Shown piece after piece: positions 12,958-15,530 of a stretch of DNA of 64,000 bases. The notes beneath the pieces were generated by a model that saw nothing but the letters and a program-made list of their open reading frames with translations, was not told where the DNA came from and did no database searches. Numbering within the stretch: the stretch's first letter is position 1; the number at the start of each line of letters is the position of its first letter. The translations under genes and the position numbers were made by a program. Source of the DNA: Candidatus Cloacimonadota bacterium (lineage in GTDB: Bacteria; Cloacimonadota; Cloacimonadia; G963667145); NCBI GenBank assembly GCA_963667255.1, contig OY762940.1:1376001-1440000 (forward strand). The letters run 5' to 3'.

Positions 12958-14711
12958 CTTCCCTCCTCTTTTGAATTAATTTGTTTTTTGTCTTTGCAGT
13001 CTATTGTATTAGCCTCAATGATGCTACTACTGGATACTTGAGTAGGTATAGAGGTAGAATAAGAATTTATGCCACTAATCACTCCCGTAGTTCCATCAAT
13101 AGAAAATACATGCCAATAGTATTTACTGGAAGCAGTTCCTGAAGGAGCAGTAAAGGTTTTTAGCAAGGCATTATCTCCATACACTTTTACACAAGCACCA
13201 GAATATGGCAAGGAACTACTGCCAGCGTAGTGATGAACAGAAAAATAATATTTACCTTCAACCATTTTGTAAATAGTTATAGTCTCTGGACCGTAGGAAG
13301 AAATATCATCAACATCCAAACTATTATAAGGGACTGTAGAACTATTACTACTCGAATATTTACTACGATAGTAAGTATGATAAATAGTTCCATTAATTCT
13401 TGGTGTCCAAAGATGAGCATCCAAATCACTTGGATTTTGACCCCAAGATAAAACAATCCTAATTTCCTTTAAACTACTAGTTGTACCACCAACAGAAGAA
13501 AATTCAATATTATAGACAGAAAGAGAATTATTCTTTACTTTTTTTAACACTTTCACATAATAATATCCTGGCGTAGAACCAGAATTAAAAGTGATTTTCT
13601 CACTATCCGAACTAGTCGAATTAGATCTTTGTAACAGCATTCCAGATGGAGAATACAATTCTAAGTCTAAATCTCCATTACTATTTTTAAAATCAATTTT
13701 TACAGATATTTCATTATTGGCATTGGCATAAGTTTTAAAATAATCAACATCATCATCAAAAATAATAAGTGAATTTTCTTTGTTTCTCGATAATTCTGTA
13801 GCTTTTCCCATTGAATTATTAGGTTCATATGGATCACATGCTGACGAAGGAACAACTTTAAAAATGGTTAGAGCTCTTTTTATGCGAGTATTAGCTTCTT
13901 TCACATAAAAATAGCCATCCAAATCTATATTACTCAAATTCTCTTTTTCTATTATTTTTGAAATCAAATTATTAATATATTCTTCGCTTACCATTGTTCC
14001 AATACCAATAATAGCACTTGATACTGACGGAGTAAGAGTGGCAACACTTATTGCAATACTTGTTCCAGATACTAAATTGGCTAATTTAAGTTTAACAAGC
14101 TCAGTAAATTCAGCCAAATTAAGCCTATACCAAGTATAACTTTCTGATACATTAGCTTCATTTCCCATCTCCAACTTTGCCATTTTATACTGATTAAAGG
14201 CAATATCTATTTGTGACTTAGCTATCATAACAACACTAAAAAGAGCAATTGTTGTTCCTAATATGAAAATCTCTCGGGGAGCATTAATAGAACTTGCATT
14301 TATGTTTCTATTCCCCAAAATGGAAGAATTAGCCTCAACAACTGGATCCCCCATATAAATATAAGGTGCATAAGTATCTGTTTCATCATATACCATAATC
14401 ATAGTTCTTCCATTTTTTGCGACTGCAGAAACCTCAATATTTTGCAGTTTTTCGCCAGATGCATTAGTAACCGTTACCTTTACTGGCTTACTTAATTCTG
14501 AAGAAGTAAATTGATAACTTCCCAACTCATCTGTTTTACCTTGAAAAGATTGTACTCCTTCTTGAGTAAAAGTCCCAGATGTTCCACTACTTCCGCCAGT
14601 TCCATCAGTACCACTTCCTGCATCATTCCCTACAGGACTAACACTCTTCTCACCACAAGCCATAAGCAATACCACTAAAATTAACAAAACTAAATTCAAA
14701 CCCTTTTTCAT
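12954..14711 (-). CDS. Lipoprotein with PPC-like and YfaP/DUF2135-like domains
   Basis: ATG 14711 after AGGAG; lipobox LMAC; DPYEPNNS...DVDYF (PPC-like); LSWGQNPSDLDAH...LDVDDISSYGPETI (YfaP-like); stop overlaps next GTG. Confidence 0.8.
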   Translation of the reverse strand: MKKGLNLVLLILVVLLMACGEKSVSPVGNDAGSGTDGTGGSSGTSGTFTQEGVQSFQGKTDELGSYQFTSSELSKPVKVTVTNASGEKLQNIEVSAVAKNGRTMIMVYDETDTYAPYIYMGDPVVEANSSILGNRNINASSINAPREIFILGTTIALFSVVMIAKSQIDIAFNQYKMAKLEMGNEANVSESYTWYRLNLAEFTELVKLKLANLVSGTSIAISVATLTPSVSSAIIGIGTMVSEEYINNLISKIIEKENLSNIDLDGYFYVKEANTRIKRALTIFKVVPSSACDPYEPNNSMGKATELSRNKENSLIIFDDDVDYFKTYANANNEISVKIDFKNSNGDLDLELYSPSGMLLQRSNSTSSDSEKITFNSGSTPGYYYVKVLKKVKNNSLSVYNIEFSSVGGTTSSLKEIRIVLSWGQNPSDLDAHLWTPRINGTIYHTYYRSKYSSSNSSTVPYNSLDVDDISSYGPETITIYKMVEGKYYFSVHHYAGSSSLPYSGACVKVYGDNALLKTFTAPSGTASSKYYWHVFSIDGTTGVISGINSYSTSIPTQVSSSSIIEANTIDCKDKKQINSKEEGR

Positions 14712-14735
14712 TCTTTTATCTCCTATTTTAAACAC

Positions 14736-14773
14736 AAAAAAAGAGACAGCTCGGTAAAACCGAACTATCTCTT
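14736..14773 (-). terminator. Leader intrinsic terminator (attenuator) of the lipoprotein operon
   Basis: AAGAGATAGTTCGGT-TTT-ACCGAGCTGTCTCTT, 15-bp stem with two G-U pairs, ending in T7, just upstream of the RBS. Confidence 0.85.
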
Positions 14774-14798
14774 AAACTATATAAATTTAGTTGACCTG

Positions 14799-14909
14799 CT
14801 AAGCCACCAGTCCCTTGACTGACCAACTGACCAACTGACCAACTGACCAACTGACCAACTGACCAACTGACCAACTGACCAACTGACCAACTGATTTTTT
14901 TATTTTCAT
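14799..14909 (-). CDS. Putative leader peptide MKIKK(SVGQLVSW)3SVKGLVA
   Basis: ATG at 14909, 30 nt downstream of TTGACA; reads through the octamer repeat to TAG 14799-14801; no SD (possibly leaderless). Confidence 0.55.
   Translation of the reverse strand: MKIKKSVGQLVSWSVGQLVSWSVGQLVSWSVKGLVA
14818..14894. repeat. Simple sequence repeat (ACTGACCA)9 + ACTGA
   Basis: 77 bp perfect octamer array. Confidence 0.97.
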
Positions 14910-14938
14910 AACGACAGGAGTTAAAAATTTTTTAAATA

Positions 14939-14944
14939 TGTCAA
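14939..14944 (-). promoter_or_regulatory. Sigma70-type -35 box of the lipoprotein operon
   Basis: Perfect TTGACA; no canonical -10. Confidence 0.5.
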
Positions 14945-15340
14945 CCCAGAATTGCGAAAAATTTACAATGTTGTATCAACACTGTGTTTGGGCTTCCTGC
15001 TACTCTCTCCTCATCCTCATGCCCGTTGTCTATCAAGCACAACGCCTATCTAATTGCTTTACCACTCTTGTGCTTGGGAAATGGGGATTTATTCTTGTTT
15101 TCGTTCTTACCTGTCCTTTTTTTGCCGTAATCTGACCACATAAATTAAGTCTCAAATGATTAGCCGTATTTATGTGTTCAGATGCTATCGTTATGCCAAA
15201 AGATAGACCTACCTCACCAAGCAACTGCTTGACTCCTCTGCAAAAAAACAATCTCGCTATTTGATTAACTACTGCTCATTTATTTATTTATTGTATGCAT
15301 TGGGATAAAGCGTGGCGGTATCTTCTTGCTCCTGCTCTCC

Positions 15341-15450: not shown

Positions 15451-15530
15451 GCGGTGATGTGGAAATGAGTGCGGTGGTGCGAGAACAAGAGTGGTGATGC
15501 GAGAATGTAGGTGGTGATGCGGAATAAGGA
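15451..15530. repeat. Four imperfect 20-bp tandem repeats (GYGGTGATGCGRGAAT...)
   Basis: 20-bp periodicity, each unit carrying a REP half-site-like core. Confidence 0.7.

Follow-up and report, generated by a model that had tools for sequence, protein, structure and literature searches.

The question raised by this locus is what a perfect tandem array of TGGTCAGT, placed on the minus strand between a promoter-like hexamer and three genes, does to those genes. The first-pass annotation of the window (the whole 64,000-nucleotide stretch of DNA that was analysed) took it for a phase-variable attenuator, in which the number of octamers sets the frame of a short leader ORF relative to a terminator. 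The hexamer, leader ATG, nine-unit array, 15-bp hairpin with its T run and ribosome-binding site on which that reading was built were all found where it had placed them (Table 1). The array comprises 9.6 copies with 100% match according to TRF, and no fold was predicted for it as DNA. Rfam returned three matches at E up to 1, each below its gathering score; the mir-341 match on the array (45.3 bits, cut-off 90) was rejected as a repeat artefact. In the following, the locus is called cassette E, the present genome G000, and five relatives from the one genus G001 to G005.

Table 1. Features of cassette E and its downstream genes (window coordinates) and positions of the other cassettes of the same genome (C1 coordinates)
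Feature	Position	Strand	Remarks
TTGACA, predicted -35 element	14944-14939	-	sequence; no TATAAT downstream
Leader ORF, 36 aa as assembled	ATG 14909, TAG 14801-14799	-	no Shine-Dalgarno; ATG at inferred +1
A7 run within leader	14901-14895	-	possible minor slip site
(TGGTCAGT)9 perfect array	14889-14818	-	stop-free in every sense frame
GTCAA	14795-14791	-	just 3' of early stop; invariant across 10 aligned cassettes
TAG used at 7 or 10 units	14779-14777	-	3 nt from extended stem, 5 nt from G-C stem
Intrinsic-terminator-like hairpin, 15 pairs + T7	14773-14736 (stem 14773-14741)	-	sequence and covariation
TAA used at 8 or 11 units	14730-14728	-	reached via hairpin read-through
AGGAG Shine-Dalgarno of gene 1	14724-14720	-	sequence
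Gene 1 ATG	14711	-	first ORF after hairpin
Gene 1, 585 aa	12954..14711	-	lipoprotein-type signal (LMAC, Cys19), PPC domain
Gene 2, 882 aa	10309..12957	-	lipoprotein-type signal (FLGC, Cys20)
Gene 3, 150 aa	9777..10229	-	hydrophobic N-terminus with Cys
Terminator-like hairpin ending three-gene unit	9725-9700	-	sequence
Cassette A, (GTCA)30	C1:63445
Cassette B, (TCAGT)18	C1:131256
Cassette C, (AGTC)5	C1:898159
Cassette D, (CAGTT)22	C1:983710
Cassette F, (GTCAGTCG)8	C1:1480292

Variation of the copy number n of cassette E from 0 to 15 in silico gave a strict three-state cycle of leader stops, which reproduced the three stops that had been assigned by unit number. With n mod 3 = 0, the leader ends at the early TAG (36 aa at n = 9); with n mod 3 = 1, it ends at the second TAG, and with n mod 3 = 2, it continues through the hairpin to the TAA. 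The corresponding distances between stop and hairpin are 25 nt, 3 nt, and read-through (27 nt, 5 nt, and read-through when counted to the G-C stem). The array lies outside the genes, its end is 107 nt away from the ATG of gene 1, and no leader frame is fused to that gene, in line with the earlier proposal that three genes are controlled without frameshifting any of them.

This geometry suggests the following mechanism. A ribosome would load at the 5' ATG and trail RNA polymerase. With 9 units (or 6 or 12), it would leave the transcript 25 to 27 nt before the hairpin, which could then fold and end transcription; the assembled nine-unit state is thus the predicted OFF state. With 8 or 11 units, the ribosome would run through the hairpin and block its folding (predicted ON), and with 7 or 10 units, it would end 3 to 5 nt before the hairpin and probably block folding as well. 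Slipped-strand gain or loss of units would move cells between these states and switch the three genes together. Overall, we consider it likely that repeat number sets the leader stop, hence occlusion of the terminator and the ON or OFF state of the operon; for cassette E, we infer the start at the ATG, leader translation, coupling, termination, and slippage in the population. The OFF/intermediate/ON scheme of the first-pass annotation gains comparative support from 12 cassettes (see below), but its intermediate class needs revision: since the 21- and 23-unit states of Streptococcus gallolyticus are both high in the passages of PMC3894217 that describe them, the state with 7 or 10 units probably represents ON rather than an intermediate.

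For the leader to be read in this way, transcription has to begin close to its ATG. In a promoter model that scores mostly A+T richness, the TTGACA site of cassette E reached the 99th percentile when compared with 2954 TTGAC sites in coding sequence, and the 53rd when compared with 310 gene-facing intergenic ones. No TATAAT box follows it, and the promoter was absent from the 10 sites returned by a sigma-70 scan. The 310 gene-facing sites had in common only a T at +27 (0.53) and an A at +34/35 (0.46), and 18 of 44 tRNA or tmRNA genes carry TTGAC within 90 nt (six of them at 38-41 nt) with no TATAAT discernible by eye. Absence of TATAAT therefore seems, as far as sequence can tell, to be a habit of this organism. 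Genome-wide, promoter-like sites appear to consist of TTGAC plus a weak T(G) at +27/28, without TATAAT; one sigma-70 was found, in which the usual region-2 words are kept. Judged from the TTGAC spacing in this genome, +1 would fall near the leader ATG of cassette E. When TTGAC is 34-38 nt upstream of the ATG of an ordinary gene, a Shine-Dalgarno word is missing in 21 of 23 cases, compared with 19 of 27 at 39-49 nt and 15 of 97 at 50-69 nt. The missing Shine-Dalgarno word at 34-38 nt spacing makes it plausible that the leader is translated leaderless, from an ATG at the inferred +1.

The search of the genome for similar cassettes, an idea of the first-pass annotation, yielded six, including cassette E. 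Within the single contig of G000 (1,587,896 bases, 98.86% complete), an unbiased census of perfect repeats listed 120 tracts, seven of which have a unit of 4-14 nt and at least 5 copies. Six of these seven long arrays share the same cassette layout (A to F), which places the array itself beyond chance; the seventh is an in-frame 9-mer inside a coding sequence. DNA and RNA-model searches revealed two further cassettes each in G001 and G002 and one each in G004 and G005, but none in G003, amounting to 12 cassettes in five of the six genomes of the genus. Ten of the 12 had served to build the RNA model and so necessarily match it; the other two were new finds. The model produced 17 further matches at E up to 1 in G001-G005, all without a repeat. 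Outside the genus, it gave three weak matches in a set of 135 genomes, all of them terminators at gene ends that have no repeat. A GTCA-type pattern, which covers one unit type, was found in 0 of 226 genomes of the phylum outside the genus, many of them fragmented. A scan of all genomes returned 11 stretches, three of them known cassettes and eight from other lineages in which neither inspection by eye nor folding revealed a hairpin with a U run, and two metagenome scans and one viral scan returned no cassettes.

Comparison of the 12 cassettes separated what is kept from what changes. TTGAC lies 34-35 nt 5' of the leader ATG in 11 of them; the one cassette without TTGAC at the expected distance counts against the explanation that we favor. 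The ATG is 14-20 nt away from the array in 10 of the 11 uninterrupted leaders and 47 nt away in G005. There are six distinct repeat units (8, 8, 5, 4, 7, and 4 nt), none a multiple of 3, and in all 12 cassettes the unit is non-triplet and stop-free on the sense strand, with a stop on the opposite strand in five of the six units. Because a CAGT core is common to the units, they do not amount to six independent draws. Copy number ranges from 3 to 30. A conserved leader peptide was rejected, since cassettes A and E are unlike in their read-through frame. The A7 run, proposed earlier as a second slip site, is present in cassette E and shifts the frame in silico, but none of the other nine aligned leaders (0/9) has it.

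The hairpin covaries across the family. In an alignment of 10 cassettes, 6 of 10 consensus pairs showed two-sided changes and 93.9% of the cells were paired, compared with 31-51% in slid controls; the covariation score was reached by 0 of 500 shuffles, a result favored by the derivation of the structure from the same aligned sequences. A strict terminator filter was passed by 10 of the 12 cassettes and failed by two. The longest invariant block of the 10 aligned cassettes is GTCAA, 19-26 nt after the array, which is not part of any conserved hairpin upstream of the terminator. On the opposite strand, GTCAA reads TTGAC, which is the main promoter word in this genome, and it might thus be the -35 element of a convergent promoter, with the array tuning interference and the leader frame being incidental. 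The reverse sites score low, however: in 10 of the 12 cassettes, they do not exceed the 31st percentile of intergenic sites (13th percentile in cassette E). Moreover, such a promoter would leave the conserved ATG and the stop-free units unexplained. We therefore rejected it, weakly, on its low promoter-model scores, and regard it as highly improbable.

Copy number might instead act by length or structure. The RNA of the TGGTCAGT array is predicted to form a G-U-rich hairpin (-18.8 kcal/mol) that begins 14 nt past the leader ATG, close to the 5' end, and this hairpin may hinder leaderless loading. Together with the wide span of copy numbers, it would fit a rheostat, in which the array or its hairpin tunes loading, coupling, or RNA stability in front of a leaky terminator. 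We consider this unlikely: the AGTC and CAGTT arrays, which account for 8 of the 12 cassettes when rotations are counted, fold at 0.0 kcal/mol, and a rheostat would not call for the absence of triplet-multiple units. Moreover, predicted pairing of the terminator is constant at 0.985 from 6 to 12 units, indicating that the equilibrium fold is not the route by which copy number acts; for the same reason, an alternative fold driven by copy number was rejected.

The preferred reading, in which the frame decides where the ribosome stops, makes demands on the leader stops. All 12 cassettes, which are kin, possess an early-stop frame as well as a frame that reaches the hairpin. Dinucleotide-shuffled spacers gave the same frame pattern in 63-84% of trials per cassette; in one cassette alone, the pattern is not beyond chance (null 0.63-0.84), and the product of the nulls over all 12 (0.038) overstates the case, given their kinship. 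In 10 of the 12 cassettes, one frame stays open across the whole hairpin, whereas two have none that passes well into it; an open frame through the terminator is thus common but not universal. The distances themselves are more specific. In all 10 filter-passing cassettes, the earliest leader stop is found 23-36 nt before the stem (27 nt in cassette E), and the latest at most 9 nt from the stem or inside it. Ordinary gene-end terminators of G000 (77 by the same filter, among 1348 ORFs) are located at a median of 22 nt after the stop, 50 of the 77 at 15-29 nt and only 5 within 12 nt. The early stop thus matches ordinary terminator spacing and the late stop does not, which suggests that one phase copies a working geometry, while the other falls in a zone avoided by terminators of this genome.

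Such spacing is the pattern expected where ribosomes suppress close terminators. In Escherichia coli, repression of tR2 is nearly complete when a stop precedes it by a few bases, and its activity is maximal beyond 27 nt, as stated in passages of PMC4824070. The spacing in G000 is also the opposite of the short stop-to-terminator distance that serves as a proxy for uncoupled transcription in the corresponding part of PMC7858274. In the assembled sequences, the early-stop phase is represented by six of the 11 uninterrupted leaders (D, E, F, both of G001, and one of G002); four others stop near the hairpin or read through it (A, C, G004, and G005), and one stops in between (11 nt). In summary, the proposed mechanism is supported by sequence comparison of 12 homologous cassettes, in which the ATG, the non-triplet stop-free repeat, the hairpin, and the stop geometry are kept.

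A switch further requires that the array changes in length. In the two paralogous cassettes of G001, 199 of 200 bases on the upstream side and 110 of 115 on the downstream side are identical, but the arrays contain 9 and 21 units, respectively, which indicates that the array changes faster than its flanks; in G000, B and D have 18 and 22 units. We also inspected contigs of three sequencing runs from one study (contigs alone, in which copy-number variation within a population is hardly visible). None of them bridges the TGGTCAGT array, and X3 gave no contig at this locus; at the five-unit array of cassette C, a single contig each from X1 and X2 (probably the source sample) passes through without a gap. 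Unit counts, which the first-pass annotation had proposed to compare across related assemblies, thus differed between the paralogs, whereas no variation within a population was seen in these contigs, which counts against the switch.

These contigs, at face value, would also suit former switches that are now fixed or decaying, with a stable array and an operon that is simply attenuated or silent. Damage is indeed frequent: three of the six cassettes of G000 are affected, with an insertion sequence in the leader of B, another between terminator and gene in C, and loss of the U run in D, and the DNA and RNA-model searches found no cassette in G003. Both insertions belong to a 1.1-kb Mutator-family element with 17 near-identical full-length copies in G000 (e.g., C1:131363-132480 and 898280-899390); an 8-base duplication flanks the copy in B. 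Decay is nevertheless very unlikely in our view, since the arrays are perfect and free of point substitutions up to 30 units, every part of cassette E is intact, and paralogs with near-identical flanks differ in copy number.

The genes placed under this presumed control are mostly those of surface-type proteins. In gene 2, the start overlaps the gene 1 stop, and the product has two FGE-sulfatase-like domains plus fn3/Ig-like modules. Gene 3 has no Pfam match and, unlike genes 1 and 2, does not conform to the lipobox pattern. All three would be co-transcribed. In four of five genomes of the same genus, rluB is followed by gpmI within 1.5 kb, so that the site occupied here by cassette E and its three genes is empty there. 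The 850-bp gap between rluB and cassette E contains short dispersed repeats (window 15130-15210), a region to which several contigs from other places align (15091-15208), along with three imperfect copies of a 20-nt unit (window 15473-15529).

Across the 12 cassettes, nine downstream genes start with a hydrophobic stretch and a Cys (by eye), although the lipoprotein-like gene of cassette C comes only after an insertion sequence, and one downstream gene has a signal-like start without Cys. Cassette B is followed by a PDC-S29/EcsC-like gene (PADLOC E 5e-83), and cassette D by a LeoBC/LeoA dynamin-like pair (PADLOC E 2e-114 and 5e-126). The defence-like loci behind these two damaged cassettes (L034:9310-11134 with PDC-S29/EcsC and TerB; L036:2962-6864 with LeoBC and LeoA) are each followed by a near-identical small GIY-YIG protein. 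In G001 (L038:9465-13568 and L039:1671-5012), the two cassettes are followed by lipoproteins that combine six or seven C-type lectin domains with leucine-rich repeats or an FGE-sulfatase-like domain.

Ribosome-controlled attenuation without an antiterminator stem is familiar from the pyrBI operon of E. coli, where the trailing ribosome directly blocks folding of the hairpin and the attenuator responds to nucleotide supply via pausing. In attenuators of the pyrBI type, a conserved pause hairpin precedes the terminator, and the operon under control is biosynthetic. With pyrBI and, going by the passages on tR2 cited above, with that terminator, cassette E would share the direct block by the ribosome and an efficiency that depends on the distance between stop and stem. 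The input of pyrBI is nucleotide supply, whereas that of cassette E would be heritable repeat number, and the genes after the cassettes are not biosynthetic. A conserved upstream pause hairpin was rejected for all 12 cassettes (z-scores of -1.5 to +1.1).

A closer precedent is the pil1 operon of S. gallolyticus, for which Danne et al. (2014; PMC3894217) proved the mechanism by deleting the terminator, by mutating the start codon or introducing a triple stop, and by using chloramphenicol; they describe pil3 as a second case. According to the same study, pil1 expression is low with 22+3n GCAGA units and high with 21 (stop 4 bp before the hairpin) or 23 units (stop inside it), most isolates whose stop is at least 28 nt away show low expression, and switching occurs at a rate of 5 x 10^-3 per cell per generation; the relevant part of a 2018 review (PMC5891635) repeats this account. 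Cassette E resembles pil1 and pil3 in its non-triplet repeat within a leader ORF, the terminator before gene 1, one frame stopping far from the hairpin and two stopping near or inside it, and a surface-protein operon downstream whose genes are not frameshifted. Its OFF distance of 25-27 nt is just under the limit of at least 28 nt given there for the low isolates. The layout would work like that of pil1, yet cassette E is not in the pil1/pil3 sequence family: the units here are of the CAGT type and 4, 5, 7, or 8 nt long instead of GCAGA, and the cassette leader lacks both the ribosome-binding site and the -10 box found in S. gallolyticus. The streptococcal switch is proven and serves pili at two loci, whereas the cassettes, inferred in a different phylum, number six in one genome and precede lipoproteins and two defence-like loci.

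In classical contingency loci, as outlined in the respective passage of PMC3894217, repeats cause a frameshift in the coding sequence or change promoter spacing. The cassettes are similar to these loci in having long perfect non-triplet arrays beside surface-protein genes, but their array lies past the inferred +1, outside the controlled genes and not in the spacer of a promoter. In the literature searched, which included few subscription papers, S. gallolyticus was the only experimental example found, and phase variation in Cloacimonadota did not appear except for one paper that contained both words once. The mechanism as such is therefore already known from the passages of PMC3894217; the cassettes vary it by their probable leaderless form, their multiple copies, their changing units, their occurrence in another phylum, and their position before lipoprotein genes and two defence-like loci.

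Other loci of the genus might also switch. In the 5' region of a gene for a 166-aa lipoprotein-like protein, four 17-nt units (G000 C1:467241-467310, minus strand) end in a copy that holds the Shine-Dalgarno sequence. The first three Shine-Dalgarno bases are predicted to be paired with 2, 4, or 6 copies (unpaired 0.00-0.01) and partly free with 1, 3, or 5 copies (0.72-0.99, 0.28-0.40, and 0.18-0.26), suggesting a possible odd/even translational switch. A G11 run at C1:1567523-1567533 (minus strand) follows TTGACA and ATG-AAT-ATG; among 9-13 Gs tried, only 11 bring this earlier start into the frame of a lipoprotein-like gene of 947 aa, whose own ATG is situated 80 nt further on. This run is possibly a second kind of slip switch. 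At loci L098, L100, and L108 (G003, G004, and G005), the same gene is preceded by a terminator-like hairpin and, ahead of that, by a short upstream ORF rich in Met, an arrangement that looks like an amino-acid-sensing leader attenuator.

Beyond the single locus, the cassettes may represent a portable leaderless switch of one Cloacimonadota genus that has been copied before many surface-lipoprotein genes and two candidate anti-phage loci, with an unchanged stop geometry despite exchange of its unit between 4, 5, 7, and 8 nt, and that would turn whole operons of a bacterium with a small genome ON and OFF independently and in combination; for this wider reading, we see the case for and the case against as evenly balanced. 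If true, the same switch would have been built from unrelated sequence in a distant phylum, and it would be the main job of long repeats in this genome (six of seven long arrays). Surveys that look for repeats in genes or promoters would miss such switches. The 12 natural variants would form a ready series for relating stop-to-hairpin distance, unit length, and leaderless loading to termination and switching rate.
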